Virus record (IMG/VR): IMGVR_UViG_3300037104_000756
Span: 34,163-98,162 of that record
From: a virus
Strand: one strand, 5' to 3'
Length of the DNA: 64,000 nucleotides
The notes below the pieces were generated by a model, which was not told where the DNA came from, ran no database searches, and worked only from the letters and a program-made list of their open reading frames with translations. Position 1 is the first letter of the stretch. Each line of letters starts with the position of its first letter. Shown in pieces: positions 6,674 to 60,923 of this stretch. The translations under genes were made by a program, and so were the position numbers.

Positions 6674-6708
6674 ACAAGACTTTTAATTCAATAAGTGAAG
6701 CACAGATT

Positions 6709-6772
6709 TGAGCCAGTCGGCGGGCGTCAAGGCTCATCATAGGATTGGAGCTAATCAAAGAAATTCGCCGAC
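6709..6772 (+). ncRNA. Putative H-type pseudoknot RNA
   Basis: TGAGCC(6709)/GGCTCA(6731) and GTCGGCGGG(6716)/TTCGCCGAC(6764), with a small hairpin in loop 3; intergenic. Confidence 0.45.
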
Positions 6773-7443
6773 ATACCTTTTTAGAAACGGTGGTGGGTCA
6801 TGTCAGGAACCAGCCACGTCTTTACTTTTAAATGCGCCCAGGGTCACGTCACGCATTGCCTATTTCCCCCAGGAACTCGGATTGATGATCACGATGAAAT
6901 GAAATGTGCCGAGTGTTTGAAAACAAATGATTCTAAGCCCGCTTATGTGGTTTTCGTTCGCTCGCAAACCACAAAGGATAAAACCAATGGCGGACGACGC
7001 TAATCACGCACACAAGTACTACTGCTCGTACTGCACGAAATACATATATGGTGCAACCCCTGAAATTTTGGCTACGTGTTTGAATGTTCACAACTCAGCG
7101 ATTCATCCAGCAGATTGTGCCCGATGGTGCGCCGCCGACATCGTTCGTTCGACACATTATGTCGGTACATCTTATGTGTCCGAGTATCTTACAGTAGGGG
7201 AGTGGGGCACCGCCAAGAACCCTCCTAGCATCACCGCGCGCGACCGCATTATGCTCGCGAAGGGGTTGGTCCGATGGGATTCCTAGCACTCATAGGATGT
7301 TGGATGCTTATCGCTGCGATTGCTGGAGTAGTCGACCGCTGGTATATGAGGAGGGCATCTCACCATGACAATTAGAGATGGTGAAACTGTTTGTGAGCAC
7401 GGAGCCCGCCCATTTGAATGCCCACTGTGCAAAGAGAAACGCA

Positions 7444-8034
7444 ATGCCTCTTGATCTATATTCGGAGGACCACTTTAACCAGAAATCTTGGGAGCGTGTC
7501 GCAAATGCGAAGGCCACCGATTTTGAACCGTGGGCGGAAGCGCGCGAAAGGTACATTGCGGAAAAAGTCGAACCGATGCTGCAGATGTATCGACAAAGCG
7601 ACCACGACTGGTTCAAAGACTTCAATCGTCGCCGGGGTGAATGTATCCATTCCTCGGACTTAATCTACAAACTACAAGGAATTAGTACACATATTTCGGT
7701 GCAGTCTCAGGTAAATTTTCCTGACGATTGGGGGTTGTACTCTTCTGCTCTTGGCCGAGTTCAGTTCCTGACGGGTTTACCAAAAGGCTGGTTGACAGAG
7801 TTTAGCTACGCATTGGTGGACGAACGTGACCTTCCGTTAGAAGAGCGGCGCGGCTGGCGGACAGTGTTGGTCTACTGCCTTATGAAAGGTGCGATCACCT
7901 GGGAACAGGTGCTGGTTGAATTCGGCGAACCCAACGATGCTTGGAATGAAGCCCGCTGGTGTGAAGTGACGGCGGACTTTCGGCACGGTGGTGAGGGTAT
8001 TATCCATAGGAACATAGCAAATGTCATAGAGTAA
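7444..8034 (+). CDS. Hypothetical protein
   Basis: About 196 aa, Trp-rich; start at MPLDL is inferred. Confidence 0.6.
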   Translation: MPLDLYSEDHFNQKSWERVANAKATDFEPWAEARERYIAEKVEPMLQMYRQSDHDWFKDFNRRRGECIHSSDLIYKLQGISTHISVQSQVNFPDDWGLYSSALGRVQFLTGLPKGWLTEFSYALVDERDLPLEERRGWRTVLVYCLMKGAITWEQVLVEFGEPNDAWNEARWCEVTADFRHGGEGIIHRNIANVIE

Positions 8035-8413
8035 GACGGAGCACAAATCATGAGCAGATTCAAGACCTGGGTTATTGTCCAATACTCGATCCATCAGGCA
8101 AACCAACAACTGCGTAGTCGACAGAAGGCGTTGCAAATTATCCCGCCTGACGAAAATCCCTATGAGATTATGAAGGCGTGGAAAACCGAGATGATACGCC
8201 GCTATGGGATTGATGGTATTCAACACTCGGATTGCGCGACCCCCGAGATTCAATCGATTTCTTTGGAGTCTATCTTTCGGCGGGTTAAACGGAGAACCCG
8301 TCGCGTGATTTATGCCATGTTCTTTTAACTGCTGAAAACTTATTACAGGTTTGTGACTATCTCCCCCATCAGTGTGGAGCACCCAGCACTGAGATTTTCG
8401 AGGAGCAAGTTAC

Positions 8414-8914
8414 ATGGCAAATGAACACGACAACAACCGAAGTTCGGCGCTGACGCCTGAAGCGCTGGCTGTCATCAATACCGCAACATCCAAAGCGGTT
8501 CAGGAAGCGGTATCTGCTTTGCTGCAGGGATTGATGCCTGCTTTCAAGGATATGGCTGTTACGCCTGAGAAGTTGCGCGAAGCCAACCGTCCGTACGAAG
8601 ACCCTGCGAAACTAAAGCGGGAACTCCGCGAATCATTGAAATCCAAGCAGGATGAAGCAGAAATTACCCGCATGAATGATGCGCGTAAAGCCGCCTGCCC
8701 TCATCTCGACAAGAATGGACGATCATCCATTAACCTCGTGCATAACCAACCAGACCACCAGCCGCGCGGAATTTGCGTAGTGTGTGGTGACTGGATTCAC
8801 CCGAAGGAATGGCGGATCGGACCGGCTGACGAAAAGAATCCGAGAGGTAAAGCGTATCTGGTCGAGCCGCATAAAGATTATCGCGTCGTCATGCAGATTG
8901 ACAGCATGAGCTAG
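8414..8914 (+). CDS. Hypothetical protein with CPH/CxxC zinc motif
   Basis: SD GAGGAG; helical N-half, CPH...CVVC. Confidence 0.65.
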   Translation: MANEHDNNRSSALTPEALAVINTATSKAVQEAVSALLQGLMPAFKDMAVTPEKLREANRPYEDPAKLKRELRESLKSKQDEAEITRMNDARKAACPHLDKNGRSSINLVHNQPDHQPRGICVVCGDWIHPKEWRIGPADEKNPRGKAYLVEPHKDYRVVMQIDSMS

Positions 8915-8931
8915 CTTTTCTGCGAAAAAAC

Positions 8932-8960
8932 TTGACATCTAAGTCCTCTGGAGCTACGAT
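8932..8960 (+). promoter_or_regulatory. sigma70-type promoter
   Basis: TTGACA-17-TACGAT upstream of 9002. Confidence 0.6.
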
Positions 8961-9001
8961 CAGTCCAGAGGATTTTTTATGTTCAAATCACAGGAGGCTC
9001 T

Positions 9002-9700: not shown

Positions 9701-9705
9701 GTGGA

Positions 9706-9734
9706 GAGGGGTCTGAATAAGACCCCTATTTTTT
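9706..9734 (+). terminator. Intrinsic terminator
   Basis: AGGGGTCT-GAATA-AGACCCCT followed by a T run. Confidence 0.75.
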
Positions 9735-10164
9735 ATGGACAATCCAATTCCAAAATCGAATTTCAACGCCACGCTTCGCGCGTCCATAAAATTACAGCGC
9801 GCGATGCCTTGTTGCGTGCCTCATTGTCCTAACCATCGATTCGTTGATTTCTATGTTTGTAAGATGCATTTTGTGGAACTCATGGACGCTGCATTTTTGC
9901 GGACGGTGGCTTATGGCTAAAACTGGTCGACCACGAAAATCACAGAAGTGTCCAAAGTGTGGGGAAACTGATTTGACTGCCTTTGCATCCAATCGGACGC
10001 GGCGCGGCGGGCGGCAAGTCTATTGTCGAGACTGTGAGCGCATCCGCCGATTTATCAAATCCGTTAGTTTTGACTGAATGAGATGAATTTTGACTGAAAT
10101 GTTTTGGACTCGGCACTCCATAGGTGTAGAGGCTGAATACCCGCCTCCCTGAAGGTAAAATCCA

Positions 10165-11046: not shown

Positions 11047-11093
11047 AAAGAATTTAGCAGGAAGAGCACGACACAAAAAAGGAAATCACGACG

Positions 11094-12620: not shown

Positions 12621-12708
12621 AAAGTTCTTGGCTTGGGGGTGTGACCAACGCATCCCCATCACCTTGATTTTGTACCAGAAGTAAAATCTACGTTTGGAGG
12701 AAATAGTA

Positions 12709-12921: not shown

Positions 12922-13062
12922 TCTTACCGATCTTCCAGTTACGAGGCTCTGGTGCTGCTCACACCAGACTACAAACCGTTCTGGATGCTCCGAACCGGAC
13001 GCCCGTCATCCTCACTGGTGGCGGGCGTTCGTATTTAAGACTTTTTGTGTTATAATTAGAGA

Positions 13063-13644
13063 ATGAAGTTCTATTCATATCTCTGGCTTCGGGACGACGG
13101 AACGCCGTATTATGCGGGGAAGGGTACGGGTCGAAGAGCGTTTCGCAGTGCGGGACATGGGGTGCACTGTCCTCCAGATCGCACTCGGGTCATAGTCTAC
13201 CCTGTGATGAGTGAAGCGGAAGCTTTTGATTTAGAAATGACGTTGATTGCATGGTACGGCAGAAAAGATATCGGTACCGGGTGTTTGCGGAATTTAAGCG
13301 GGGGTGGAGAGGGTCCGACACTATCCGTTGCGCATCGAAAGAAACTGAGCGAAGCCCACATGGGGCATGTTTCATCCCGCAAAGGGAAAAAATTATCGGA
13401 GAAAGAAAAACAGAATCTCAAGGGGTGGGCTAAGGGGCACATCCCGTGGAACACAGATAAGATGGGCGGTTCTTGGTCTCAGGCTCGAAGAGATTCGTTT
13501 GAGCGGCGAGGCGTATCAGAACAAACTCGCCAAAAGCAGCGGCTGGCGAAATTAGGAAACAAGAATCGATTGGGCGGAAAAAAATATGAACTTCAACCTC
13601 GTGCCTTCGGTGAACCAATCCACAACCATCCAAGCAATGGCTGA
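13063..13644 (+). CDS. GIY-YIG family homing endonuclease with NUMOD3 motifs
   Basis: FYSYLW...PYYAGKGTGRRA, E..LIAWYGR, LRN..GGEG, KGKKLSEK; overlaps the next gene by 59 nt. Confidence 0.88.
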   Translation: MKFYSYLWLRDDGTPYYAGKGTGRRAFRSAGHGVHCPPDRTRVIVYPVMSEAEAFDLEMTLIAWYGRKDIGTGCLRNLSGGGEGPTLSVAHRKKLSEAHMGHVSSRKGKKLSEKEKQNLKGWAKGHIPWNTDKMGGSWSQARRDSFERRGVSEQTRQKQRLAKLGNKNRLGGKKYELQPRAFGEPIHNHPSNG

Positions 13645-14980: not shown

Positions 14981-15029
14981 GACTTCGGGTTCTATAGGTA
15001 GAGACAAATATGATCACGCTTATGCGGTG

Positions 15030-16405: not shown

Positions 16406-16451
16406 TTAAGACTTTTCACACCATAGTAGAGCCCTCTGGGCTCCCCATACT

Positions 16452-21832: not shown

Positions 21833-21910
21833 GATTTCGCGATTGGGTAGTGCGCGTGACGAATCATTGGATTCAAGACTAATCAATTCATAAATGTAAG
21901 GAGCATTGTA

Positions 21911-28289: not shown

Positions 28290-28546
28290 GCCCGGATTAA
28301 GACTTTCTCTCGTATAGTGTAGGCAGGAGAATGCTATGGAGCGCTCACCCGTTTGCCCAAAATGCCTCTCGAAATTTTTAGACATCCGAGGGTGCATATA
28401 TCATGGTAAGACCGCCAGCACCATTTGTGAAGATGCATGGCATCGCGGCGCTGATTATAATCCTGACGTGCTAGTTCTGACTGCTCAGGACCGCGATTTT
28501 CTCGCAAGTGTGAAAGTTAGTTTGGAACCGCAAAGGAAGGCACTCC

Positions 28547-28939: not shown

Positions 28940-29257
28940 ATGCATCCACGTTTAGATTTGGTAGATCAGATTATCCGCATTCTTGGCTGGCCCACACTGC
29001 TGGGTGGATTGGGCTGGGCGATCCGCAAATGGGATGACGGTCAACGTGACTTCAAAGTGATGGGGGAGAATACACGAATCGCGGTCGCAAAGATTGCTAC
29101 AGTTGAGACCGAGGTGCTGGCGATTAAAAACAACCACCTTGCTCATTTGCAGGAAGGTATCGTTGCATTGAGCGCAAGCAATGACAAAGCGGTTGAAATT
29201 TTGCAGACTATCAGTAAAGACATTGCGGTGTTGGTTGACCGCACACCACGCGCTTAA
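28940..29257 (+). CDS. N-terminal TM plus coiled-coil protein (holin-like, uncertain)
   Basis: ILGWPTLLGGLGWAI followed by NNHLAHL. Confidence 0.5.
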   Translation: MHPRLDLVDQIIRILGWPTLLGGLGWAIRKWDDGQRDFKVMGENTRIAVAKIATVETEVLAIKNNHLAHLQEGIVALSASNDKAVEILQTISKDIAVLVDRTPRA

Positions 29258-30633
29258 TCCAATCGGACTCCCCAGAACGCTCTTTTGCTAACAGGTGCAT
29301 CTGAGATCAGGCGGACGCAACTCGGGTCTGCCGTCACCACGAACCGCCTTCCTGTTGGAAATCTCACCTCGACTCTTAATGTTTGCGACAGAATATTCAT
29401 ACCCGTTATGGTGCCGCAGTAGTGAGCAGCGGGTCCTGTTAGAATCTCCACAAAATCTTGCGTGACTATCCTCGGGGCGGCAGGGCTATTATGATTTTGC
29501 ATCATCGTTTGAATCTCAGCATCAGGGATGGTGACTGCATGGAGAAAAACACCTTCGTCGGTATATATAGACGCCATTTCTGAGATGCCTCGAACCCGAG
29601 TTAGACCGCGAGTCAGGGTCGGTGATGTGCATCGCGCAAACAGATAATTGAACGCCAACTCTCCGTCATCGTTCGTAGGAGCAAAAATTTGCGCTGCTTG
29701 TTTTCCAAAGAGACGGCGTCCCTGGCTCTTGAGCATCGGAAAGATGAGGCTCATGCGGTGGTCAGACGATATTTCAAACATACACCAGGGCGTGTCTTGT
29801 AGCTTGCTTACGGCTCCAAACGATACCAGCGGGGAGTCATCACCAGGGGGTGCGGTAAATCGTAGCGTCTTGACACGCCGAGTTCGTGCGCGGCAGCGCT
29901 TACTGAGTCCTGCGCCTGTCAAGGACGCTTGATGCGTCAGGCTGCGGAGATACGCTCCAACAGCCACAGCCTTCACATCTTTGCTAGCCAACAGCGCGGT
30001 AATTGCTGGGCGGAATATTTTGCGGATCGCGGGAATCGGCGCTCCAACCGCTTTAGCGACCAGGGCATAGTTCTGACTGATGGCATACATCAGGATTAAT
30101 TGCGTCAGGCTGCCATACGGTGTTTCATCCACGCCTGCTTTTGTGATGATGGGACCGAGGACGAGACCTGTTGGCGCGGTACCGAGGAGAATCATGGACC
30201 CGAGAGTCTGTTCGATGATGCGCAAGTTCTGCCAGATGCGAGTTTGAATCTGCCCATGCGCTTGGGCGATGAAACTTTGAGATTTTTCGAGTAGATAATA
30301 TTCGATGAACAGTTCTTGAAACTCAGCGCGCATTTTTGAGATTAAGGGGAACAGTTTCTCAGGGTATTCGCGCGCGAATGTTTTGAACCCAATCAGGCTG
30401 CTGTTTTCCGGCAGCGCTTCAGCGGATAGGAGTGAATCCGAATCTTGGTTGCGCTCAAAGGATACGACGCTGGCGGCATTTGTCACATGGTCCCAGTAGG
30501 AGTATCCAGCCTCAGAGACTGACCGATATGTTTTGGCTTTGGCTTTCTTCCACGCCGCTGCGTAGTCTGAATGGCTGATCACACCATACATTCGACTGCG
30601 CGCACCCCAAGATATTGTGACCTTATTCGACAT
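29254..30633 (-). CDS. Transcription factor: sigma70 region 4-like HTH + second HTH + NusG-like NGN and KOW domains
   Basis: LISKMRAEFQELFIEYYLLEKSQSFIAQAHGQIQTRIWQNLR; NYALVAKAVGAPIPAIRK; W...QIFAP...NYLFAR...VRGI...IPDAEI; DFVEILTGPAAHYCGTI...LRVEV..TGR. SD GAGGAG before the Met at 30633. Confidence 0.75.
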   Translation of the reverse strand: MSNKVTISWGARSRMYGVISHSDYAAAWKKAKAKTYRSVSEAGYSYWDHVTNAASVVSFERNQDSDSLLSAEALPENSSLIGFKTFAREYPEKLFPLISKMRAEFQELFIEYYLLEKSQSFIAQAHGQIQTRIWQNLRIIEQTLGSMILLGTAPTGLVLGPIITKAGVDETPYGSLTQLILMYAISQNYALVAKAVGAPIPAIRKIFRPAITALLASKDVKAVAVGAYLRSLTHQASLTGAGLSKRCRARTRRVKTLRFTAPPGDDSPLVSFGAVSKLQDTPWCMFEISSDHRMSLIFPMLKSQGRRLFGKQAAQIFAPTNDDGELAFNYLFARCTSPTLTRGLTRVRGISEMASIYTDEGVFLHAVTIPDAEIQTMMQNHNSPAAPRIVTQDFVEILTGPAAHYCGTITGMNILSQTLRVEVRFPTGRRFVVTADPSCVRLISDAPVSKRAFWGVRLD

Positions 30634-30967: not shown

Positions 30968-31305
30968 CTGACCAATCTACCAGAAATTCTAATCCGCTGT
31001 CAACTCTTTTTGTTCCCAGCAATCATGCATAGTGTTGACGTACCCCTGCGTGACAAGGTCCCGCTCGAACACCGCGATCTCTTTTTGAGCGTGGATCAAC
31101 TGAATGTGGTACTGCGCCCAAGTGCTGCGGTGAATAGCGCGCGTATTCTCCGCAAAGTGGCGCTCGATGCCGTTCCGATATTGCTTAGGCTGTACATTCC
31201 CCGCGCAGCCCTGTTCGTCGAATCCCTGCTCATCCCTGACCGATAGGCGACCAGGGAGTTTGGGCGGGAATAGTTTTGATAGCAAGTGGCTGATCCATGC
31301 AGGCA

Positions 31306-32070: not shown

Positions 32071-32113
32071 AATATTCAAGACTTTTCAATTCATAGATAT
32101 ACGAGGGATTTCG

Positions 32114-33443: not shown

Positions 33444-33472
33444 TTGACACTTAACGCAACATCGGGTAAAGT
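33444..33472 (+). promoter_or_regulatory. sigma70 promoter of the tmRNA gene
   Basis: TTGACA-17-TAAAGT. Confidence 0.8.
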
Positions 33473-33477
33473 GCAGG

Positions 33478-33900
33478 AGTCGAGTTTAAGATCGACACGG
33501 TGGAGGCAGAAATCGTGCCCCAAAAGCTGGTCGTGCAGTTAACACGCGCTGAGCGAGTTCCGTGACGCGAATAGGACGGCGACCTTAAATTACGTTCGTA
33601 TAAAGCCTATGGCTTCTCAGAAAGACGAGGGTTCGACTCCCTCCGAGTCCACCCTGCCACACAGCACGGATGTTCCGACGCCCAAAGGGCTGACGATCTA
33701 ACCACTGTGTGGTACGGTGGGCTCGACTCGGTTTCGATTTTTGAGATAGTGGTGGGGCTACTTCGAACCGTCCTGACAACGACGTTAAAAGAGATCAAAC
33801 CAATAAATGCGATGCCTAAAAAGCTAGCACAGGTGGTTATGTTCGCGCAGCGCCCTGCGGCATTCGTGCCCCAGGCACTCGCGGCATAGTCGCCGGGGGA
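33478..33900 (+). ncRNA. ssrA: Circularly permuted (two-piece) tmRNA
   Basis: T-arm GAGGG-TTCGACT-CCCTC and acceptor 3' strand CGAGTCC-ACC (33627-33653) lie upstream of the 5' strand GGGCTCG (33719), giving G3.U; tag frame 33809-33889 ends in ALAA*. Confidence 0.92.
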
Positions 33901-36426: not shown

Positions 36427-36876
36427 GATTTTCTCTAGTACGCGTTTTTTGTGCTTGACAAATCAACACAGAGGTGAGACGCTCTTTAGAGAGGTGCAAT
36501 ATGATTTTCCTAACAGGTGTCGTGTTGCGTCCCCATGTTTTGCAAGTCCTCGTAGCAGCCTTGGTTTTCTGGCTTGCGGTAGCTACCTGGGTGGCTACGA
36601 AGGTGGGGCGCTTTTTGCGTGAGGAAGAGCGGTTGTTTGGCTTTTCTGTCCCAGTTTGGATGCGGAGGAAATAATGGGAGAATGTTGCAATAGTTGCGGT
36701 GCTTTTGCCCCCCAGGCATCTTTGCGCAAGTGTCAGTATTGTCCGACGTTGATTTGTGACCGTTGTCGAGGTCCTCATGAACCAGTCTGCCAGCAGATGC
36801 AAAAGAAGCGTGCGTTTGGATTGGGTCCAACGGTTCGACCGAGGGATTAAGACTTTTTGATTTAAAGTATACGGTC

Positions 36877-42689: not shown

Positions 42690-45600
42690 ATGGCTTGTAC
42701 TCGCACCATAGAAGAGATGAAGAGTGACTTGCACGGCGGCGGGTGGGAACTCTACCGCAGCGGTATATGGCGGTCGCCGTCTGGCGCGGTGTACCCAGGA
42801 CCACATAAAGCTTGGCATGTATGGGCTGGGACGCCAATGTGCGACCCACCAGAGCCACCCAAGTTGGGTGCAAGTTCTGGACTAATTCTCTCTTAGATAG
42901 AGAGTTAAGTTGTTGGAGAATCTAAGAGATAGCTCAAATGGAGCGAGCAACCAAATGACGCAGTGGATTCTACTCAGACCTGACGAAGAGTGTCCTGTTT
43001 GGGAAGTGATGCCTGCTGCGCAGGCCACTGCTGGAGCACGAATTCAAGAGGGACACAGTGCTGGGCTGTATTGTAAATGCAAACCGTGCTTCGTGGATGG
43101 CGAGATTAATTCGGTTCTGGTGCATCATATTTTAGTTAGAGGTAAGCCAAAGCGATGCACTGAACCTAACGCGCATGACTGTCATCTGAAGGAGAATCAA
43201 TGAGCAAACCATGGAAGGACATCAAACACAAAGCCAAGCGCGTGACGTGTGAGATTGTCTATCGCGTGCGTTGGTCGGCAGGAGATGTGGACCTCCCCAA
43301 TCAGGAGCGCGCTGACGAACACGCTGCGCGCTTGATGGCGGCAGGGATAGCAGTGCAGGTTGATTCGTTCCGAAGGTCAAAGCAGTGAGAACGCGATGGT
43401 ATTGGACAGGGACGACAATTAGACTATCGAGGACCGCGCGCTTTCTTCTGAGGGTCGCATATATTTTTGTCGGGCTGGCAATGGGACTAGACGGCTATCC
43501 GCAACGGAGAGTACGATGATCACATCAAAGGGCTACAATACATATGTGTTGGGCGAGCGGGCGTTCTACACTTCAGCGATGCTGGAACAACTGCAGGAGA
43601 ATATATCCGCCTTCGGGCGATGTTACATTTCGAATTGGCGCATCCTTCACATTGACGGCTTCGAGGACGGGTATATATTCTTGCCCGAGCGCGGCGGTTA
43701 TGACATTCACTTTACATGGAGCCAAAAAGTTGGTCAGAAAACACAGGATGGCTCGATTGAGTGGACGAATCTCGGGAAGTACCAAAAATGAGTGAGACAC
43801 CGAAAATCGAGCAAGATTGGGCGTACAAACAGGCCAAGCAGATTGTAACTATGTTTGACGAGCCTGCATTATGCCCGCTGAGTATTAAGCGAATTGCCTC
43901 GATGCTGCGTCGGGCGTATCGCAAGGGCGGCGAGGCACAACGGATTAACGACAACACCAAAGCGCTGCAGGCGTCCATGCCTAAAATTACGGTAGAGCAG
44001 CGTGTTCCCACAATGCCGAGTGTTCATCTATGCAGACACGGCGTTTATGCTGCGCAGTGCTACGCGTGTGCCGGTAACGCCAACTGTGCTAACAACGAGG
44101 CGGAATAATGTTCACAATAGACGAATCATGGAATCAGGTGGTGCTGGCTGAAGGCGAAGCCAAGCGGCTGGTGATGTTTATACTAGATCACCAGGGTCAC
44201 GGTGAGATTACGATTTGCACCAAAGCCGCTGGAGTGGGGAAGGTAGTGGTCGCTGTGTGTGGTCACGTCCCGAGCAGCCAGCAAGATATTACGGATTACT
44301 CAACGTGGTAAGGGCGGCGAGCTATAAGTGCGATCAATGTGGGAAAATCGTTAAGCGTGCCAGTCGGCAGGCACGCCTCAAATCATATTGCATGTTAACA
44401 GGCAAGAGTGTGTGCCTGATTAGAGTGCGGAGGCTGAAGTGACAGACATTCAACGGGCTGAAGCAATGGATAAATGGGCGGTAGTAACTCGGCGGTTCGC
44501 TGGTTTGGAATCCGCCATGGATGAAGCCGAGAGCCTTATTCGGCGGGCAGACCATATCGAAATATGGCAGATGCCAAGAGACTGGCTGGTTATCGCACGA
44601 TTTTCTGTTCGGGTGAATTGAATCGATGAACCACAAACGCAAACGACCGAAGAACCGGCGCGCGGGCTGCTTGATGTGCAAACCACATAAAGCAAACGGC
44701 GTAACAAAGAAGATTCACGTTCGAGGCATCAAGGGCAAGATCAAACTGGAAGACGCCTAGCGCGGAGGAATATATGAGCATTGAAACCATGTTGATCGAG
44801 ATCGCCAATCGCGCAGGCGCGCCGACGATGGACTACTGTTCTGAAGCTGTCTTGTGTGAGCAGCGTGAGAGCTTGAACTGGATAGCAGCCAAGGCGGCAG
44901 AGGCAATCAAGCTGTATCGGCAGGCACCGCAGTGGCGCTGTGGTGAGGCTGATTGTCATATTCTCGCGCCGCACAGGCACGTCACTATTTGAGCGCAACA
45001 CGTGGAGAATACAGCGATGAAGATTGCACTGCAGCACCTCCCAATTTGGGATAGGCATCGCGTGTATCGCGCGTATTATCGGGGTATAACCGCCGCCGAG
45101 CGCATCGAGTTCATAAAGACGCATCTGCATGCCCGAGGGATGGTGTTCAAAGAGTCCGATGGCACATTGCTCTATGCGGACTACTGGCCTGACTTCGCGC
45201 CTTGGTATCTCGGTGAATGAGCGCGGTCCGCATTCCAGAGGGGCATCACCATCATATTCGTTGCCTCATCATTCCAAAATGGCGACCCGCTGAATTGATT
45301 GGCAAGGCGATACTGACTGAACAGACTAGAGAGGGAGTGATGGTTAACGACATCAATTATTTAGCGCAGTTGATCACGGATGACGCGGTTCCGTTATGGC
45401 TGCATGAATACCTCGCGCAGCATCGCAGTCGGATGATAGCCGAACTGGGGTTGTTTGGAGTATGTGAGGTTCCCACTCCCGATGGTAGGGTAATGGTGAT
45501 TCGTCCGTCAACCGATAGCTTGTAGTCTATCGAGATCACGACAAGTTATAGCTTGTGGGCTATTGGAGGCTGTGATGGTCGAGATACGCATGCTGACCGA

Positions 45601-49666: not shown

Positions 49667-51427
49667 CGGAGAGGAGTCGGTATGATCAAAATCACGAGCA
49701 CAACGGGGAGAGAGTTCAAACTGTTGAAGACTTGCGTTCGCCAAACCATCTTAGGCTTCAACTTATTTACCATGGAGGCGCGTCCGATGAGCTACAGGCA
49801 GGTTCCTCGTGATCAGTTGGCCGTAATCCTTAAATCCCACCCCGATCCTAAAAGCGGGATTCGGTACGGAAACATCGATTCCAAATTTAGTGACGGGACG
49901 ATCTATCATAACCACTGGGCGGTTGTTTTTCGTCCAGCGCGCCACGGAGGGACCCTCTCCATCGGCTGCAGCACCTTTGACCGGAAGACGACCGCAATTA
50001 TTCGTACGTGGGCGCTTGGAGGACGACAATGATCGAGCATGTGTTGTATAATGCTGAGACAGGCCAGTGGCATCGATTCACCGATGTGTACATGGTGAGC
50101 GGTGTCGTTGCGGCGACGCAACCTGAAGCGTTCGAGAAACTGTACGGGCATGCGCAACCGATTCCCCCTATCCTGCGCGCGCCGCGCCGAGTTCGTGAGG
50201 AGGCATAATGAATTCCAAAGAGATTCGCCGTAAGCAAGACTTGGATGGCTCCAGAACGCCTGCAGTCTACGGCGGGGATAATTTTTGGTTGAGTGAGATC
50301 GCCTACCAACTCGCGGTGTTTAATGAGCGCGAAGCCGCAGAAGTTCAGCGACACGTCCTACCATACAAGTTGGGCAAGGTCGAGTACGCGGACGATATAA
50401 AGACGCCCGCCACGTTCGGCTTCGGCGGGAACGCGATACAGCATCAGACCCATTGCTTTTTGTGCCAGAAGCCCGTGTCGCACTGTATCTGCCATAAAAA
50501 AGAGTAAGCACCAAAAAGCCGCGAAAACCATTGACGACCTTATGAACGGCGGTTACAAAACTGACTTGGCGATTCATCAGTAGACGACAGTTCCTGACGG
50601 AGCTATCGGGAGCACTGCAGTGAGCATCCTGAGCATAATTCACGATTGGTGGTTGATGCCATCTCAACTGCCGCCCAATGAACCCACATGGAATTGGAGC
50701 ATCCCCGTTTCATCGCATATTTCCAGATTGGAAGCCGACAATAAGCAACTCAGGTTCCTTCTCGGCCAAGCACCGATGATCGACGCCCCGACCGAATACG
50801 AGCGTTTGGTTGCATCGCAATCCAAATTTGCATACATCCATCCAAAGACCATAGCCAAGTACGTTTCGAAACTAAGCAAACCCTTTTTGAAATTTGGAGG
50901 ATCGCCAACCATCTACATCATCACATCGCTGATGCCTGAAGGGTTTATAATCTATTCTCCGAATCTCCTACCGGGATACGAGAATCGCATCGCGACATTC
51001 ATTACGAGGCAGTCCGCATCTTTGAACGCGTGGCGTCCGCTGTGAGCGATTCGAGTCAGTGGAGTGGTTCGAACGTGCGCTGGTATGGACCGCTGTACTT
51101 GGGCGGCAGCCACCATGCAGTGCCGACAATTTGTGAGTTTGCACTAGACGGCAGATATTTGCAAAACGAAAAAGAGGTTTTGATTACTGCCCTAGAGAAT
51201 TGGTTGCGGGCGGCTTCTGCGAAACAAATTTTGGGACCGCGATGTTGAGGGGATGACATGGAAACCGTAAAACAGTTCGTAACGATTCGGGGAGTCTCAT
51301 ATCTTGTGACGGAGCATTCAGGATATCTGAAGGCTCACCTTAATGGGTACTTCGGATGGACTTCGGTGTGGGCGGCGTCAGAAGAGGCTTTGCTTCGGCG
51401 CGTTCAACAAGTACGGACGGGCGGACA

Positions 51428-53414: not shown

Positions 53415-54023
53415 CTGTTCTCGATAAGAACCAAACTCTGGTTCCTCCTGCAGATCATTTCCTTCACGCTGTGGGGGCTCAAGGTGCGTATATTTGGCTA
53501 GAGTACCACACTAGATCATGGCGTACGGGATACGACACGAGGTACGGTGCGGTGATGATCTACCTGAACGATATGGGGCGGGAAGTAATTCGGACCCAGC
53601 AAGATGTAGACATTCCCCTACCTGTTGAACCCGAGGTTGCGCCAGTGACGCGGTGGATGAAATTTAAGAACGGATTTTTTATGGTGCTAATCGGTATCGA
53701 GGAGATGATCACATGTCGAAACAAGTCATAAGCCAGCGCATGGAACAAGTCTGCGACGCCTGCGGCGCAACCAAGGAATGGGAATTGGTTGGAGCCGACC
53801 AGAACCAAGTCATCATTGATGAAATGCAAGAGTGGTATAGCGTGGGTCGCAAACTCGTGATTGACGGGCGCATGACCCAGCTAGCGGTTGACGCATGTTC
53901 GTTGAATTGTGTTGTCGTTGCGGCAGCGAAGATGGTGCCTCAACCGGAGTCGCCTGCGGACAAAATCGATTTGGCTTCGTTGCGCACAACGAGTTTCAAT
54001 CCATTGAACTGACAGAGGAGACA

Positions 54024-55625
54024 ATGCCAAAACTAATCAGGCACGGCAAGGATGCGCGCGACGCAGTTTTGCGTGGTGTAGATTTCTTAGCCGATGCAGT
54101 TAAGATTACGGAAGGTCCCCGAGGGCGCAACATCATACTCGGCCAGCGCGCCCTGGGGCAATCACCCAAGTGTACGCGGGATGGGGTGACCGTATCCAAT
54201 TACGCCGATCCTTCCGATCCAACCGAACAATTGGGGGCAGACTTGGTTCGAGAAGCCGCGCAGAAAACCGATAACGCGGTAGGCGACGGCACGACAGCCG
54301 CAATCGTTTTATCGCAGGCAATGGTTCACGCGGGTTTCGAACTGATTACCGCTGGAGCTAATCCGATGGCGATGGAGCGCGGGATTCACAAAGCTGTTGA
54401 TGCGGTGATCGCCCGATTGCGCGTCATGGCGGTGCCGTGCGAAGGTCCCAAGCTTTTTCAAGTGGCGCAAGTCTCGGCGCATGGCGACAGAGAAATTGGT
54501 GAATTAGTAGCGCGTGCAGTGATTCAAGCAGGTCCGCACGGAGTGGTGACGGCTGAACCTTCATCCACGTCCGACACTTCCGTGGAGACGGTCGTTGGTC
54601 TTGAATTGGAAAAATCCAATTTGCTGCATGGGGCATTTGTTACCCACCCAGAAGAAAATAAAGCAGAGTTGCATGACTGCCGCATTCTTCTTTGGGAGGG
54701 TGTGATTGCCACGGCGAAGTCCATTGTGCCATTGCTGAAACAGGTGAATGAGGCGAATGTCACGGGTGGAACTCCTCTGTTGATTATCGCGGGCGGATAT
54801 GAAGCGGAAGCTCTCGCATGCATTCTCAAGAATAAAGTCAGTCTCGCGCTGCCTCTGATCGCGGTGCGCATGGAAGCGTACGGCGAGCGGCGCAAGGAAG
54901 TGATGCGGGACATCGCGGCACTGACTGGCGGCAAAGCGTATACTGAAGATTTGGGCATGAAGATTGAGACCGTGAAACTTGCTGAATTGGGGATAGCCCG
55001 CAAGGTCATTACGAATATGTCCAAGACTCAAATCATTGAGGGCAAGGGCAATCAAGCTGAACTTGCAGGGCGCGTGGCGCATATCAACGAGGTTATGGAC
55101 GCCGCTGCACCGCTTGAAAAGAAAATTCTCCAGACGCGGCTGGCGGCGCTCCTCGGTGGGATCACGATTATCAAAGTCGGCGGGGTAACTGTAACCGAGA
55201 TGGAGGAAAAGAAAGACCGCGTGGTGGACGCTATGTCTGCTGCGAAGGCGGCGGTGGAGTCAGGGATCGTAGCGGGTGGAGGCACTGCATTGCTGCAAGC
55301 CTCTGCAATCTTATCGGCGTTGAAGTTGCCGCCTGATGAGACGGATGGATTGGAAGTCGTTCACACCGCATGTCGCGCGGTTGTGAAACAGATCGCCGAG
55401 AATGCGGGACTCAGCGGCAACTTCCTACTCGATCAGTTAATGGCAACTCCTGATTTAGGATACAACGCGCTCACGGGAACGTTTGAAAATCTTGTGGAGT
55501 CAGGCATCATCGATCCAGTTAAGGTCGTCATAGAATCCCTCCGTAACGCGGCGGCGGTGAGTTGTAGTATAATCACTATGGGCGCAACGGTCAGTGAAAT
55601 TAAACAGGAGAAAACCCATGACTAA
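54024..55625 (+). CDS. groEL: Chaperonin GroEL
   Basis: AVKITEGPRGRN, TRDGVTV, GDGTTAA, GANP, DIAALTGG, EEKKDRVVDA, GIVAGGG, GIIDP.KV; SD GAGGAG before the ATG at 54024. Confidence 0.97.
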   Translation: MPKLIRHGKDARDAVLRGVDFLADAVKITEGPRGRNIILGQRALGQSPKCTRDGVTVSNYADPSDPTEQLGADLVREAAQKTDNAVGDGTTAAIVLSQAMVHAGFELITAGANPMAMERGIHKAVDAVIARLRVMAVPCEGPKLFQVAQVSAHGDREIGELVARAVIQAGPHGVVTAEPSSTSDTSVETVVGLELEKSNLLHGAFVTHPEENKAELHDCRILLWEGVIATAKSIVPLLKQVNEANVTGGTPLLIIAGGYEAEALACILKNKVSLALPLIAVRMEAYGERRKEVMRDIAALTGGKAYTEDLGMKIETVKLAELGIARKVITNMSKTQIIEGKGNQAELAGRVAHINEVMDAAAPLEKKILQTRLAALLGGITIIKVGGVTVTEMEEKKDRVVDAMSAAKAAVESGIVAGGGTALLQASAILSALKLPPDETDGLEVVHTACRAVVKQIAENAGLSGNFLLDQLMATPDLGYNALTGTFENLVESGIIDPVKVVIESLRNAAAVSCSIITMGATVSEIKQEKTHD

Positions 55626-55786
55626 ACCATACAAGGTTCCCCCCGAAGGATGTTTTCAAAACATGGTAATGGTCGACGGACGGATTTTGCATTTAGTAGT
55701 CGCAGGTCCCATGACGGATGACATCATAGCCGTCTTATCGAAACTCGCAATCGTGGATGCCCGAGTCGGCATAAAGAAGGTAGCCA

Positions 55787-56074
55787 ATGTCTAATACGTT
55801 TTTAGAACCTGCGACAGACCACATTCTCGTTGTGGACAATCACGAAGGCACCGACATCGGCGGCATTTCTCTGCCCGACAATGTCAGACAGCAGGAAATG
55901 GTTTTCGGGACTGTGTTGTTTGTGGGACCGCTCGCGCCTGCCACAAAAGTAGAAGACCGCGTATGCTACGGTCCTTACGCGGGCAAGACCGTAGTGATAG
56001 ACGGAATTGAATTTCGACTCATTCGTGAAGGACAGATTGAAGGATATCTCAGAAAGAGACCAGACCATGCATGA
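55787..56074 (+). CDS. groES: Co-chaperonin GroES
   Basis: LEP..D.ILV....GGI.LPD...GTV.FVGP...VK..DRV.Y..YAG..V.IDG.EF.LIRE..I.G. Confidence 0.92.
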   Translation: MSNTFLEPATDHILVVDNHEGTDIGGISLPDNVRQQEMVFGTVLFVGPLAPATKVEDRVCYGPYAGKTVVIDGIEFRLIREGQIEGYLRKRPDHA

Positions 56075-56576
56075 ACAACCGCCGCGACTCTCATTAGAAG
56101 AGTTGCAAACAACATTAGAGTATCAAAAACTCACCCAGAAGCAGCAACTGTTTGTAGCGACCTACTGCGCTGGGGGTTTGCTGGACGGCAATTACGACCA
56201 TGTCGCTGCGACGCGGACTGCGTACGAGTGCAAGTCTCTGGAAGTAGCCCGCATCATGTCTTACGCGCTCATGGCGAATATTCGTATCGTCGCGGTATTG
56301 AATCGGCATTTCAACGCGACTCCGATTGAAGAATTTATCGTGATGTTGGACCGCGCCATTCGCAATCGAAAATTGACGACCGCCCAGTTGCTGGCTCTGA
56401 AGCTTAAAGGCGATGTGATGGGCTTCACCAGTCGACTCCCAGGAACGGCTAATATGCCGCTCGGATTTATCCCTCCCGCTATACGCGAGGACACGCTTCA
56501 GCGTCAGAAGGCGAAAAAACAAGCGGCTAAAGACGCGAAGCCAAAAAAAGTCGTAGAAGAAGAGTCTTTCTTTTAG
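56067..56576 (+). CDS. Terminase small subunit-like HTH protein
   Basis: LTQKQQLFVATY...GN....AA...AY...S..VA......L..N.RI. Confidence 0.6.
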   Translation: MHEQPPRLSLEELQTTLEYQKLTQKQQLFVATYCAGGLLDGNYDHVAATRTAYECKSLEVARIMSYALMANIRIVAVLNRHFNATPIEEFIVMLDRAIRNRKLTTAQLLALKLKGDVMGFTSRLPGTANMPLGFIPPAIREDTLQRQKAKKQAAKDAKPKKVVEEESFF

Positions 56577-56913
56577 GACTAATCTTCTCCTTAGTGTATG
56601 GACTTCATGATGATACCTGGAACCGCTGCGCTCGGGCAACCGCGCATGGGTTCGATTTACGATGAAACTGGCACTCCTGACTCGGGGTATGAGGAAAAAG
56701 GTCCTTACCATTGTTCAGATTGCGTGCATCGAACCGCGCCCGATGAACCCTTCTGCATTCATCCGAAAGTGTTGGGAGACCATGACCTGCAAGCTCAGTT
56801 GGTTCATATTAACGGACGTGCTGCGGTCAAAATAAATTTAGAACACGGGTGCTGTGCGTTTGTTCGGTACCCTGCAGGATTTGTTGAAGAGGCGGAAGAA
56901 CACCATGACCGGC

Positions 56914-57069
56914 ATGAGTAAAGCCCAGGCGTTCAAAGAAGTCTATGCCAAGACTCCGAAAACGGTCACAGCTACAGGCAAGACTGGCGAAGCTAAGAGG
57001 AAAATGTTGGTGGCTATTGCCTTGAGTAAGGCTGGAATGTCGAAGCCGGGGAAAAACGCCAGAAAGTAG
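56914..57069 (+). CDS. Small basic protein (DUF6496-like AIALS motif)
   Basis: Lys-rich; VAIALSKAG. Confidence 0.5.
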   Translation: MSKAQAFKEVYAKTPKTVTATGKTGEAKRKMLVAIALSKAGMSKPGKNARK

Positions 57070-57077
57070 GATATTAA

Positions 57078-58930
57078 ATGCCATCAGCAATTATAATCGG
57101 TCAAGGTGGTGGAGTCGGCGGCTCTGGCGGGTCTAACGCTTCCGTTGGTCTAAACGGCGGGATAGGACCCACCAGTTCAACCCAAATTGGAGATATCGTT
57201 GCCGGGGTTTTCACTGCATTCAGCGCCACTAACCCTGTGCCAATTACTGGGACCATCCTAGCCAACAACTCGTCGGTCCAACTGGGTCGCCAGTTCCCCC
57301 GGATGCTACTTTCATAGGCGTCCAAGACGCCAGCGGGAATCTTGTCGGAGCGAGCGCCGCTAACCCTGTCCGCATAGACCCAACAGGCACGACAATCCAA
57401 CCTGTGAGCGGAACCATCGTTGTCTCGAACTTTCCTGCGACGCAACCTGTTTCAGGCACGATTACGGCAAATCAGGGAACTTCACCTTGGGTCGTCAGTC
57501 TCGCGAGTACGACCATTACAGGTAGCGTAGCCGTCACAGGAACTTTCTGGCAAGCAACCCAGCCCGTCAGCGGCACAATCACCGCGAATCAGGGAACATC
57601 GCCCTGGGTAGTCAGTAACGGCGGAACCTTCGCGGTTCAGGCATCCATCACAACTCTTGGTCAGCAGCTAGCCGCCGCGTCGGTGCCAGTTGTTCTGACC
57701 GCCGCGCAAATTACCGCGCTGACTCCGTTATCCACAGTTTCAGTTACACAAGGCACCTCACCTTGGGTAGTGTCTCTCGCTTCGACTACGATCACAGGAA
57801 CAGTTGCTGAAAATCTAACACAAGTAGCTGGAGTTGTTTTGGGTGCGACCGCCGTGACGGCATACGGTACTGCGCCTGCTGCCGCAAACGTACCTGGCGT
57901 CAACGCATTCATTACGAATACTCCTGCGGTCACTATTTCTACTGGAGCGGGACCTGTCGGTGGTACAGGTTCTTCGCTGAACGTGAACGTCACGAACACG
58001 GCCCCCGCAGTCGGGACGCTCACAAATAATAACGCGGCTCCAGCCGCCACCAATTTCGGAGTACTGCCCGCTCTTGCCAACGCCGCGAACCCAACTTGGA
58101 CGGAAGGCGACCAAGTTCTTTTATCCGAGGATTTATCTGGACACCTGCGTGTTGTTGCAACAGGCGCAGCAGCTACAGGCGCAGCAGTAGTTGGTAATCC
58201 TGTATTAGTTGCCGGTAAAGTTATAGCTACCGGCTTTGCTCAACCGCTCGCTGTAGACGGTCTCGGTGGTGTTTATGTGTCTGGTCTCCAGACGACAATA
58301 GGGGATGCTGTTTCTAATACAGTTGATCTCCAACTAGATGATAATCAAAATATTCTTCGTCAGGCAACTCTTCCATACATTTTTAATGGGACAACTTGGG
58401 ATCGAGCACGGTCGGCGGGGGTTTTCGCAGGGAGCGGCGTCGCCTCTACGGGAATTGCAGCTACTGTCCCCGCTGGTCAATACAGCGGCTCTGCTCCTCC
58501 TGTGTCTTTTGGGCAATATATTCCACTTCAAACAGACTACGCAGGTAGCTTGTTTGTGAAGCCGATTCGCCGCAGTACGACGGCAGCGTCGACCGCGATC
58601 ATTTCAAGTTCGTCAGCGGCAGTTACAGTTATGCCCGCTCAAGCGGCAGGTATCTTTGCGGACATCTCTAGTCTTGTTGTGACTACAACGCCAGCCGCTA
58701 CAGTATCTTTGCCTTTTACGCTGACTCTTTCGGACGGCACTGCTACATATGTTTGGGATATGGAAACGGGCGCTTTGGCGACATCCTCGGCGGATGGAAC
58801 ACTTTTGAATCTGGCTTTCAATCCCCCATTGCCCGCAACAACAGCAGCAACCGCTTGGACGATTGCAACTAACGTAGCAACAGTCACTGTTCACGCAGTA
58901 GCAGTTGCAGTTTTGCAGAAGGCTTCGTGA
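57078..58930 (+). CDS. Thr/Ala/Gly-rich virion-type protein split by a -1 frameshift near 57270
   Basis: ORF 57078 continues naturally in the -1 frame (GPTGSPVPPDATFIGVQD...) into ORF 57404; QPVSGTITANQGTSPWVVS repeats. Confidence 0.65.
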
Positions 58931-59375
58931 GGATGCTATGAAAATATCTCCCGAACAAAATAGAGCGTCTCAAAAGAAGTGGCGTGAGGCGCACCCAGAA
59001 GAAGCACGACTTAAACTTGAGAACCTTGTAAAGTTTCGTCAGTCTCCAGAAGGAAAACGCAGAGATAAAGAGAGAAAGAGCACAGAGGCATATACGACAT
59101 ACAATCGTGATGTACAGCTTCGTCATAAGTATGGAATCACAACTGCGGATAAGGAGCGGATGTATGCGGAGCAAGAAGGGTTATGTGGTTTTTGTGGACT
59201 GCCTTTACCCGATGCCTATAAGGCGTGTTATGACCATAATCACGAAACAGGAGAAGGCCGGGCGTTACTCCATACTCGCTGTAATTTGATTGTAGGAAAT
59301 CATGAAAACAAAGCTCTAGGCGCAAAGGTGGATGCATATCTTTCTAAGCACAAATTGACCAAGAAGGCGAGCTAA
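58918..59375 (+). CDS. Endonuclease VII-type homing endonuclease (divergent)
   Basis: KYGIT...EQ.GLCGFCG...DHNHETG..RALLHTRCN. Confidence 0.8.
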
Positions 59376-59376
59376 T

Positions 59377-60360
59377 ATGGCAAACATCGCAGCATTTCCG
59401 CTTGTTGTATCTATCGTTGGAGACGGGGTCGCTACGTCGGTTGTAGTCAATTTAGGATATACCCCTACCTCTGCTGCATTGACTGTTGCCTACAATGCAA
59501 ACTATGCGGATGTCTCCGCAAATATCTCTTCTGTTGTAGCTGGGAATTCAAACGTCACGATCAATTTTGTGGCTCCGTTTAGCGGCGCAATTCAAGTAGT
59601 GTTGGCGTTGTCCAGTGCAACCTGCGCTAGTGCTCAATTGCAGCCCGTTCTCGTCCAGCCGCGTGCGACCGCAGGCGTGAGGTTTGCTCAGGTTGCCACG
59701 TCAGCCGTAACCAACGTGCCCGTCAACAAAACCGTGTACACGGAACAGTCCACGAATGCACAGCGGTCGTTCTCGTCTTCATCCGCCAACGACAGTGCCG
59801 CAGGCACGGGCTGCCGAACCATAGCCGTCCACTACCTCGACCAGACTGGCGCAGGCCCGTTCATCGAGATCGTGACCTTGAACGGCACGACCCCGGTCAA
59901 TACGGTCGGCACAAACATTTGCTTCATTGATGTTGTCCTTGCCATAACCGTAGGAAGCACGGGATCGAACGTCGGCACGATCACTATGTTCACGGCAACC
60001 GCAGGCGGCGGCACCGCGATCTGCACCATAGCACCCACTGACAACCGCACGCTCCTTTGCCATCGTTACACTCCTACTGGGGTCACAACTTATTTCACGG
60101 GCATTACAGTCGGTTCCACCAGCACGACGACAGCGCAGGGAGGTATTTACACCTTGGCATCACAGAAGATTCCCACGGCAAACAATCCGTTCAATTCTAT
60201 TAGCGGGGACCTCGTGCTGTTCGGACAAGCGTCAAGCCTCACCCGCGCGTACACTTCGCCGATTGCGGTTGTTGGCCCGGCACGCACTCGTGTGATCGTC
60301 ACACCGGGAGCCGCAGCCAGTCTTATTTTTTACGGGGCGATTGACTTCTTCGAGGTATGA
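59377..60360 (+). CDS. Putative virion structural protein
   Basis: SSSSANDSAAGTGCRTI...EIVTLNGTTPV...GS...NVGTIT pattern; beta-rich. Confidence 0.55.
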   Translation: MANIAAFPLVVSIVGDGVATSVVVNLGYTPTSAALTVAYNANYADVSANISSVVAGNSNVTINFVAPFSGAIQVVLALSSATCASAQLQPVLVQPRATAGVRFAQVATSAVTNVPVNKTVYTEQSTNAQRSFSSSSANDSAAGTGCRTIAVHYLDQTGAGPFIEIVTLNGTTPVNTVGTNICFIDVVLAITVGSTGSNVGTITMFTATAGGGTAICTIAPTDNRTLLCHRYTPTGVTTYFTGITVGSTSTTTAQGGIYTLASQKIPTANNPFNSISGDLVLFGQASSLTRAYTSPIAVVGPARTRVIVTPGAAASLIFYGAIDFFEV

Positions 60361-60923
60361 TGGACATGGGTCATGATATTTAAACAATCAAACCAAGGAG
60401 CGATAGGGTCGGCGACCTTGGCGGTCGCATACTCTTCAAACTTAACTTTAGGCTCTTTCTTAATTGCAACCGTCCAAATCAGCGGCAGGAGCAGCAGTAA
60501 ACGCGACACCATCTACGATTGATTGGGTATTCGGACAAGCCAACGGGCAGGAGTTAGTTTTGCGGGGGGGTGGGCGAGTTTTTTGGTATCTTAATGAGCG
60601 CCGTCGGAACAACCCCCATCATGGATGTTTGCATAGAATGGACGGAGGAGTGATATGTCACTGGTTTACGTGTACGCACTACTAGTTGTGATTCTCGGGT
60701 TAGAAATTCACCTCGCGGTCAGCGTGGGATATCTGGTCACTCTCGCGCGCCAGGAGCCGAACATCGCGGCTTCGCCAGTGACTCCTGAACTTCCTGCAAC
60801 TCCTGCGACGTGCGGGTCCTGCCATCGCGCGGTCGCTCGATATACCATAACCGAGACGGGGATCGTCTGCGTGAACTGCAAACCTTTGCCGAAATAAGAC
60901 TTCACATTTCATAGGTAGAGGGA

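Follow-up and report, generated by a model that had tools for sequence, protein, structure and literature searches.

The window analyzed here is a stretch of 64,000 nucleotides corresponding to bases 34163-98162 of a 98,162-nt linear virus record in IMG/VR (IMGVR_UViG_3300037104_000756), which has a CheckV completeness of 98% and originates from a peat metagenome. We investigated a short element that recurs along it, GACT followed after 8 nt by YATAR, which an original prediction had interpreted as a noncanonical class of late promoter read by a phage factor. A megablast search with a 14 kb query gave no DNA-level match among GenBank phages. The genome encodes a large terminase, an SU10-like portal, a major capsid protein (MCP), a 2034-aa virion protein, an SU10-like adaptor, the products of two paralogous probable fibre genes (one with an ice-binding-like domain), a GH108 endolysin, GroES and GroEL, as well as a 1636-aa protein of unknown function whose gene lies within the virion gene block. 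Its replication and nucleotide metabolism module comprises RecA, a family-A DNA polymerase, ERF, SSB, UvrD, a PD-(D/E)XK nuclease, a primase-helicase and a ribonucleotide reductase.

Copies of the element and the genes behind them

The copies in the window are listed below. Each is named hereafter by the position of the G of GACT; positions are those of the window unless preceded by "genome", and scores are those of a matrix trained on related phages.

6671-6701, + strand: copy with G at 6678, just 3' of the GH108 endolysin gene; 21.9 bits
8348-8378, + strand: copy with G at 8355, CATCA variant, before a 166-aa gene kept in 4/4 relatives; 20.0 bits
10100-10130, + strand: copy with G at 10107, before paralogous 293-aa and 508-aa genes; 17.8 bits
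13032-13062, + strand: copy with G at 13039, perfect TATAAT, before a NUMOD3 homing-endonuclease-like gene and then the SU10-like adaptor gene; 28.9 bits
14974-15004, + strand: copy with G at 14981, touching the adaptor stop codon, before a 428-aa gene; 18.7 bits
16403-16433, + strand: copy with G at 16410, before the 1636-aa gene; 20.5 bits
21870-21900, + strand: copy with G at 21877, before five co-directional genes (157, 278, 239, 597 and 447 aa); 30.1 bits
28294-28324, + strand: copy with G at 28301, before three small genes converging on the gene of the candidate reader protein described below; 20.1 bits
32073-32103, + strand: copy with G at 32080, after a minus-strand block and before Ig-like (He_PIG) genes; 23.7 bits
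36844-36874, + strand: copy with G at 36851, TAAAG variant, after a minus-strand block and before a 676-aa TIG-domain gene; 14.8 bits
42873-42903, + strand: weaker copy with G at 42880, CTTAG variant, approximately 200 nt downstream of a consensus sigma70-type promoter; 16.7 bits
50556-50586, + strand: weak copy with G at 50563, CATCA variant, before a conserved 141-aa gene; 11.1 bits
56570-56600, + strand: marginal copy with G at 56577, intergenic; 9.0 bits
60891-60921, + strand: strongest copy, with G at 60898, before a gene run reaching the record end; 30.7 bits

The coordinates, the + strand and the letters of all 12 sites given in the original prediction were verified. The pattern GACT-N8-YATAR had 8 matches in the window, all on the + strand, compared to 0.92 expected from 100 dinucleotide shuffles, none of which reached 8; the proposed enrichment over a shuffled background was thus observed. 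The claim of a fixed 8-nt spacer also held: over five genomes (488 kb), N8 gave 54 matches on the + strand versus 1 on the - strand, and every other spacing from N3 to N14 gave at most 6. Moreover, an unbiased count of dyads (4-mer, gap, 4-mer) in the relative G003 ranked GACT-N10-TAAG and GACT-N8-CATA at the top, with z values of 17 and 14.

To avoid circularity, a matrix was built solely from the near-complete relatives G001 to G004 and then run on the studied genome. Across the whole genome, the + strand had 17 sites scoring more than 10 bits and the - strand had none. Markov-simulated genomes contained approximately 0.8 such sites, both strands combined, and the highest null score of 15.9 was exceeded by 13 of the real sites. 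Two sites had been described as weaker; the one reported at 42879 was supported (16.7 bits), and that at 56576 turned out to be marginal, with its 9.0 bits lying inside the null range. The matrix added two window sites that had not been listed, 8355 and 50563, both of the CATCA variant, and four beyond the window, at genome 2140, 4427, 4976 and 6236, which precede the portal, 140-aa, 356-aa and capsid genes. All 18 of 18 sites lie between called genes or touch a stop codon, in agreement with the gene boundary location proposed earlier.

The class of the genes behind the element was as predicted, with portal, capsid, probable fibre, adaptor, probable tail and probable lysis genes all following copies. 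The 293-aa and 508-aa genes are the ones that had been named as probable fibre genes, the 508-aa product carrying the ice-binding-like domain (Pfam). The five genes after 21877 have no family matches and are probably tail genes, and the three small genes after 28301 are a probable lysis cassette. Conserved 119-aa and 166-aa genes 3' of the endolysin gene also follow copies. The gene run after 60898 reaches the end of the record, the other end of which starts with the terminase gene. The 34-kb stretch containing the replication module has no copy, and the replication modules of the relatives are likewise free of the motif, except for copies attached to inserted endonuclease genes. Copies stand 10 to 100 nt before start codons and are strictly co-oriented with the genes.

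The minus-strand genes have ordinary promoters (TTGnnn, a spacer of 17-18 bp and YAnAnT, often with a TG extension). The type of host polymerase is thus known from these canonical promoters, and the GACT element represents a different class. We observed six GTAC-N4-GTAC palindromes located one base upstream of the -35 box in minus-strand sigma70-type promoters (28277, 32058, 36414, 40454, 41741 and 42624). They probably serve as operators for a regulator of early genes, and two lie directly against late motif copies where the control regions are divergent.

Homing-endonuclease-like genes were found at several copies. The NUMOD3 gene (13063-13644, + strand) is inserted between the motif at 13039 and the adaptor gene, and in the relative G004 the motif stands directly before the adaptor gene. 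In the relative G001, at least three genes are GIY-YIG-like, and a separate motif copy precedes each of them. The endonuclease cassettes seem to travel with, or to land at, these putative promoters.

Anatomy, conservation and candidate start sites

The element spans approximately 31 bp and can be written as RRWWtwA-GACT-TwYCnwwCY-ATA-R-G-T-RRRRG. In 58 sites from five genomes, the informative stretch begins 7 nt ahead of GACT and ends 23 nt past its G; the same sites carried no information at -8 to -60 relative to GACT. The downstream TAGAG mentioned in the original prediction corresponds to a purine-rich tail (TAGAG, GTAGA or GTGTAG). The consensus contains GGTAG in the studied genome and AGTAG in its relatives; GGTAG is the core of the RfaH ops element.

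The fit to sigma70 was assessed on the same 58 sites, in which A at position 2 of the hexamer is invariant by construction, as they were chosen by the pattern [CT]ATA[AGT]. Position 6 of the hexamer was G in 33 and T in 13 of the 58, and the following base was T in 47; in the studied genome, position 6 is T in about half of the sites. Sigma70 needs T at -7. In the relatives, with position 6 mostly G and the T one base later, the element is a poor sigma70 match. No TTGACA was present 16-18 bp upstream, as had been claimed, nor was any other -35-type box found at this distance. The only -35-like box is wwGACT, often TTGACT or AAGACT, which lies 7-8 bp from the hexamer rather than 17 bp and looks like a -35 half-site shifted toward the -10-like block. 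Another reading considered was that a sigma70 -10 box (TAGACT) ends in GACT, with a start inside the spacer. This is unlikely, as the invariant G, A and C would fall at the least-read positions, and a -35 box or TG extension is lacking. The geometry, GACT 8 nt from a -10-like YATAR block, thus matches no standard sigma70 promoter, as originally predicted, and fits no known promoter class. The YATARGTR block of the element shares 6 of its 8 positions with the T4 late box TATAAATA.

The element is kept across approximately 60 related peat-phage contigs, while the flanks diverge. A capsid protein search brought up 65 loci in IMG/VR with 75-98% identity (799 kb), in which the relaxed pattern GACT-N8-Y-A-W-A-D occurred 152 times on the gene strand versus 24 times on the opposite one. 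When 30 distinct capsid upstream regions were aligned, TTTw-GACT...ATAa-GT was the sole conserved block among indels and unrelated flanks. Genomes have their own flavours of the downstream block: CCATAAGT in G001 and G003, TCTATAG in G004 and YCATAGGT in the studied genome. In a sister clade with an MCP 75-84% identical (loci L050-L060, fragmentary contigs), GACT-N8-YATAR is missing around the capsid gene, which fits a phage-encoded specificity.

Judged by position, strand, conservation and gene class, all of them read from the DNA, a late promoter class appears to be the best and a well supported reading. We consider it improbable that the element is instead served by the host RNA polymerase (RNAP) alone, with sigma70 or an alternative host sigma, or that it is a nontranscriptional repeat such as a hotspot for recombination or homing-endonuclease insertion. 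YATAR does resemble the -10 hexamers of the phage's own sigma70-type promoters (CATAAT and CATACT), but the copies have neither a -35 box nor a TG extension, T is usually missing at hexamer position 6, and the motif is absent from the sister clade. The homing-endonuclease genes directly behind several copies would suit a repeat; however, strict co-orientation and placement 10-100 nt before start codons fit expression signals and not recombination sites.

Where transcription would begin was then considered. The sequence offers two candidate start windows, motif positions 24-26, which correspond to the geometry originally proposed (7-9 nt after the hexamer), and positions 17-19. In two genomes, including the studied one with its NUMOD3 gene behind 13039, the ATG of the endonuclease gene lies exactly 7 nt past ATAR (6 nt past the hexamer), and that of the 676-aa TIG-domain gene lies 9 nt past ATAR without a Shine-Dalgarno sequence; both mRNAs would be leaderless if transcription started at positions 24-26. 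A good Shine-Dalgarno sequence (GGAG or AGGAG) follows ATAR after 2-5 nt at more than 10 sites, properly spaced from an ATG 11-18 nt away, which speaks for transcription beginning earlier, at any rate where such a sequence is present. T and R occupy positions 18 and 19, as is usual for the pyrimidine-purine pair at a start, compatible with a start at positions 17-19. If the purine tail served as the 5' arm of RNA hairpins, the start would have to lie before position 19, but no significant signal for such hairpins was obtained over 74 sites (mean z of -0.03). Hairpins of different sequences at the same place were present in a subset only, including the sites before the 1636-aa gene and before a 1425-aa gene of the relative G002. 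Contig ends, taken as proxies for transcript ends, showed no consistent position.

The leader of the capsid gene (60-85 nt; genome 6236-6322, loci L007-L048) contains a hairpin with compensatory changes (GAACCG...CGGUUC versus GAGUCG...CGACUC), and the CAAGGAG of its ribosome-binding site is paired with an anti-Shine-Dalgarno CUCCUUG. The region from approximately position 27 onward is thus presumably transcribed.

An early start would also suit an unrecognized phage-encoded RNAP with a promoter geometry of the single-subunit type, initiating at the G right after ATAR. Such a compact promoter of approximately 30 bp without upstream elements would fit, the block CTATAGGTAGAG with upstream GACT and an A/T-rich stretch resembles the T7 promoter (GACT...TATAGGGAGA), and the Shine-Dalgarno sequences 2-5 nt past ATAR require an early start. 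Nevertheless, we regard this alternative as very improbable. GACT lies 5 nt further upstream than in T7, and every protein above 700 aa is accounted for as portal, DNA polymerase or virion protein. No unexplained open reading frame of at least 800 aa has polymerase similarity; the 1636-aa protein, considered as a hidden RNAP, was rejected because it has no similarity to one. A search of the genome for T7-type RNAP (Pfam PF00940) gave no match, a weak negative in that control genomes gave none either.

The 445-aa candidate reader and how it might act

The original prediction had singled out the protein encoded at 29254 as the factor to examine. The features concerned are as follows.

29254-30591, - strand: gene of the candidate reader, 445 aa, with two predicted helix-turn-helix (HTH) domains, a NusG NGN domain and a KOW domain
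30974-31003, - strand: sigma70-type promoter upstream of this gene, TTGACA-18-TAGATT with TG; consensus match

Predicted structure and homologue profiles make this protein look like a transcription factor, with a sigma4/Q-like HTH part and a NusG module. The protein itself had no Pfam or PHROG match. Weak KOW profile matches were seen. At least 150 metagenomic proteins make up its family, and JGI labels several of them NusG. AlphaFold models of the full factor and of its N-terminal part alone had predicted local distance difference test (pLDDT) scores of 83 and 82, respectively, and the full model matched NusG, RfaH and Spt5 with a Foldseek probability of 1.0. In the predicted model, the NGN domain (residues 266-369) aligned with NusG at a Z of 8.3 and a root mean square deviation (rmsd) of 2.8 A over 96 residues, and with RfaH at a Z of 7.7; the KOW domain (residues 374-430) gave a Z of 6-7. 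By its modeled fold, with NGN followed by KOW, the factor thus belongs to the NusG/Spt5 family.

For the first HTH (residues 68-137), approximately 25 of the 30 best structural matches were to sigma region 4 (Z of 7-8.2, rmsd of 1.1-2.5 A). The second HTH (residues 143-224) had a LuxR/GerE-type match with a Z of approximately 5. These Z values are middling, and the weight lies on the consistency of the matches, which assign the model a sigma-region-4/Q-like HTH fold. A profile search of 1.8 billion representatives showed that the two halves of the factor also occur as separate proteins. Among 63 stand-alone homologues of the N-terminal domain, 19 matched Pfam Phage_antitermQ and 17 matched Sigma70_r4_2 at the Pfam cutoff. 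One such homologue, at locus L099, has no NusG-like neighbour within 6 kb and no motif. No relatives of the factor were found in bacterial genomes.

All 4/4 near-complete relatives encode the factor, at 55-62% identity compared to 91-97% for their capsid proteins. Factor homologues of as little as 44% identity were located in 38 independent metagenome loci; the matrix gave 21 matches there, every one on the strand opposite to the factor and none on its own. In approximately 16 of these loci, the order of motif, three small genes and factor gene is kept, with the motif approximately 300-1000 nt (mostly 500-700 nt) past the factor stop codon. This arrangement is consistent with the notion that the factor reads the motif. 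Neither the factor nor its stand-alone N-terminal domain was found in the motif-less clade, whose records are only 10-65% complete and hence uninformative on this point. In the literature on phage NusG paralogues and NusG-sigma fusions, we found no description of a sigma-type HTH-NusG fusion or of such a promoter.

At roughly 55%, our preferred interpretation is that the 31-bp element forms the core of a late promoter specific to the phage, with 15-18 copies in each genome, and that the host multisubunit RNAP reads it only with a phage-encoded specificity factor, most likely the 445-aa protein. The factor gene would first be transcribed from its ordinary sigma70-type promoter, which was observed, the timing being presumed. 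The sigma4/Q-like HTH domains may then bind the duplex A/T-GACT box, approximately one helical turn closer than normal to YATAR-G-T. The NGN domain would sit on the clamp helices of the polymerase beside the upstream edge of the bubble at YATAR-G-T, by analogy with RfaH at ops. Transcription might start a few to approximately 10 nt downstream of ATAR, either at positions 24-26, giving a -24/-12-like geometry, or at positions 17-19. By family resemblance, the NGN-KOW part would stay on the polymerase and render late transcription processive and ribosome coupled.

Several points weigh against this interpretation. The promoter role is read from sequence alone. A start 7-9 nt downstream conflicts with the Shine-Dalgarno sequences 2-5 nt past ATAR, as does one immediately past ATAR with the ATGs at +7 and +9, which look leaderless. 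Factor and motif were found together within a single phage lineage, a pattern that synteny could create by itself, and no covariation between the two was seen: between factors 48% to 100% identical, GACT and ATA do not change, and genomes differ at positions 12 and 16 only. Over 20 of the conserved small proteins lack an annotation, and an unrecognized sigma-like factor may be among them. Finally, NGN domains of the NusG family and sigma region 2 compete for the same clamp site, which makes a simple model of an activator plus sigma70 awkward. Given this competition, the factor would either board at promoter escape, as Q does, or replace sigma altogether.

The latter possibility would turn the fusion protein itself into a promoter specificity subunit on the host core RNAP. 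Its NGN domain, placed in the site of sigma region 2, would read nontemplate YATAR-G-T while the HTH domains read GACT in a -24/-12-type promoter, and the protein would then remain as an elongation and translation-coupling factor. We hold this to be unlikely; to our knowledge, an initiation factor derived from NusG is of a kind not known in bacteria.

Concerning the unannotated small proteins, the late promoter could be used by the host RNAP with an unrecognized sigma-like phage protein comparable to T4 gp55 or phiEco32 gp36, in which case the NusG fusion would have another role. YATARGTR matches the T4 late consensus at 6/8 positions, and more than 20 conserved small proteins would be available for the task. 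Portal and adaptor are SU10/phiEco32-like, and phiEco32 encodes its own sigma factor (PMC12276001), although the middle/late consensus of that phage, AATGTA at -11.5, differs (PMC12276001). No Sigma70_r2 or Sigma70_r4_2 signal was detected in the six-frame genome, even at E values up to 10, and no sigma-like protein was recognized among 20 conserved small proteins. In addition, a sigma factor reading only a -10 box would leave the invariant GACT box unexplained. A dedicated phage sigma is thus a doubtful alternative.

With an RfaH/NusG-like module in the factor and HTH relatives that match Phage_antitermQ, the element could also be a loading or antitermination site of the ops/qut type at late-operon gene boundaries and not a start: the polymerase would pause at YATAR-GTAG and be boarded there by the GACT-docked NusG fusion. 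The ops core GGTAG is part of the consensus of the studied genome, 58 of 74 scored copies are internal to co-directional gene runs, and 42880 sits 200 nt downstream of a consensus sigma70 promoter. However, no other + strand promoter candidate was found near 32080 and 36851, both of which lie behind minus-strand blocks where something must initiate; this speaks for genuine starts rather than loading only. The 31-bp duplex-like footprint with its A/T-rich upstream edge is far larger than ops (12 nt), and intrinsic terminators in the late region are few, no more than in shuffles. A loading site therefore seems an unlikely explanation of the element.

Comparison with known systems and other features of the genome

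The putative late promoter was compared with known systems. T4 late promoters (TATAAATA; gp55, gp33 and the gp45 clamp) are similarly compact and devoid of a -35 box, with many copies of an A/T-rich 8-mer before virion and homing-endonuclease genes. They differ in that the phage element adds an invariant GACT at a fixed 8 nt and in that a fusion protein of the NusG family is its candidate reader. Proteins resembling gp55 or gp33 were not recognized in the phage, where no gp55-specific model was searched. In T4 middle promoters (MotA/AsiA), an upstream box read by a phage protein likewise replaces the -35 box and a -10-like block is kept, but the MotA box lies at -30, 12-13 bp from the -10 box, and has another sequence, compared to the 8-nt spacing of the phage element. 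No MotA or AsiA homologues were seen in the phage.

The lambdoid pR'/Q system also involves a DNA-binding factor with a sigma4-like HTH, thought to board RNAP at the promoter, and a -10-like block just downstream of another box. Nevertheless, it consists of one promoter and a terminator, in contrast to 15-18 copies without terminator enrichment, and Q has no NusG module. The lambdoid arrangement (a single promoter, a Q-binding element [QBE], a sigma-dependent pause element and a terminator) was not found here, the factor HTH alone being weakly Q-like, and the canonical -35/-10 promoter of pR' is not part of the phage element.

RfaH, LoaP, UpxY and ActX with their ops-type signals share with the phage system NGN and KOW domains (Z of 7.7 versus RfaH), a signal for sequence-specific recruitment at the beginning of long operons that are horizontally mobile, and GGTAG. 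RfaH, unlike the factor, has no HTH and reads 12 nt of single-stranded nontemplate DNA in a paused complex, well downstream of a normal promoter. Of the 12-nt ops sequence GGCGGTAGnnTG in a transcribed leader, only GGTAG/AGTAG is shared; the phage element is 31 bp long with a duplex-type box and seems to be the promoter itself.

In parallel with the putative late promoters of the studied phage and its SU10-like portal and adaptor, phiEco32 and SU10 (Kuravirus) combine a related virion module with phage-specific late promoters without a -35 box. The gp36-dependent promoters of phiEco32 have AATGTA at -11.5 and use a sigma factor of the extracytoplasmic function (ECF)-like type (PMC12276001). 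The phage motif differs from this consensus and is bipartite, and no such sigma factor was detectable. Sigma54 promoters similarly have two boxes approximately 12 bp apart, and the boxes of the phage element would fall at approximately -24/-12 with a start at positions 24-26. Their GG/GC boxes differ from GACT and ATA, and no enhancer-binding or sigma54-like protein was seen in the phage.

Phage-specific late promoters are a classic route to new ways of RNAP reprogramming, as for T4 gp55/gp33/gp45, MotA/AsiA, lambda Q and phiEco32 gp36/gp79. The present element is well defined, with 31 bp, a strict spacing, dozens of natural variants and a candidate reader that can be tested. If the factor-motif link is true, a NusG-family protein would be targeted by duplex promoter DNA, and the line between initiation and elongation factors could blur. 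The motif also provides an annotation tool for late genes in a widespread family of uncultured peat and soil phages, and might yield a compact orthogonal promoter-factor pair for synthetic biology.

Further features of the genome were noted. A circularly permuted tmRNA gene lies at 33594-33889 (+ strand; Rfam RF04321, 67 bits) and is also called as tmRNA with a tag peptide by ARAGORN; it is flanked by a consensus TTGACA-17-TAAAGT promoter upstream at 33444 and a strong terminator downstream at 33895. The GroEL-like chaperonin (Cpn60_TCP1, E value of 3e-53) and the GroES-like co-chaperonin (Cpn10) are encoded at 53895-56074 (+ strand) and kept in 4/4 complete relatives. Outside the window, adjoining the DNA polymerase gene (L002:4634-6060, corresponding to genome 22634-24060), we found dATP/dGTP diphosphohydrolase-like, MazG-type pyrophosphatase and nucleoside 2-deoxyribosyltransferase-like genes, a trio that hints at a pathway for modified-base DNA. 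Finally, a 1.5-kb contig (L100, JBAVUV010000274.1) binned to a Candidatus Sulfotelmatobacter (Acidobacteriota) metagenome-assembled genome encodes a capsid protein 92% identical to that of the phage, a weak hint of an Acidobacteriota host that might be a binning artefact.

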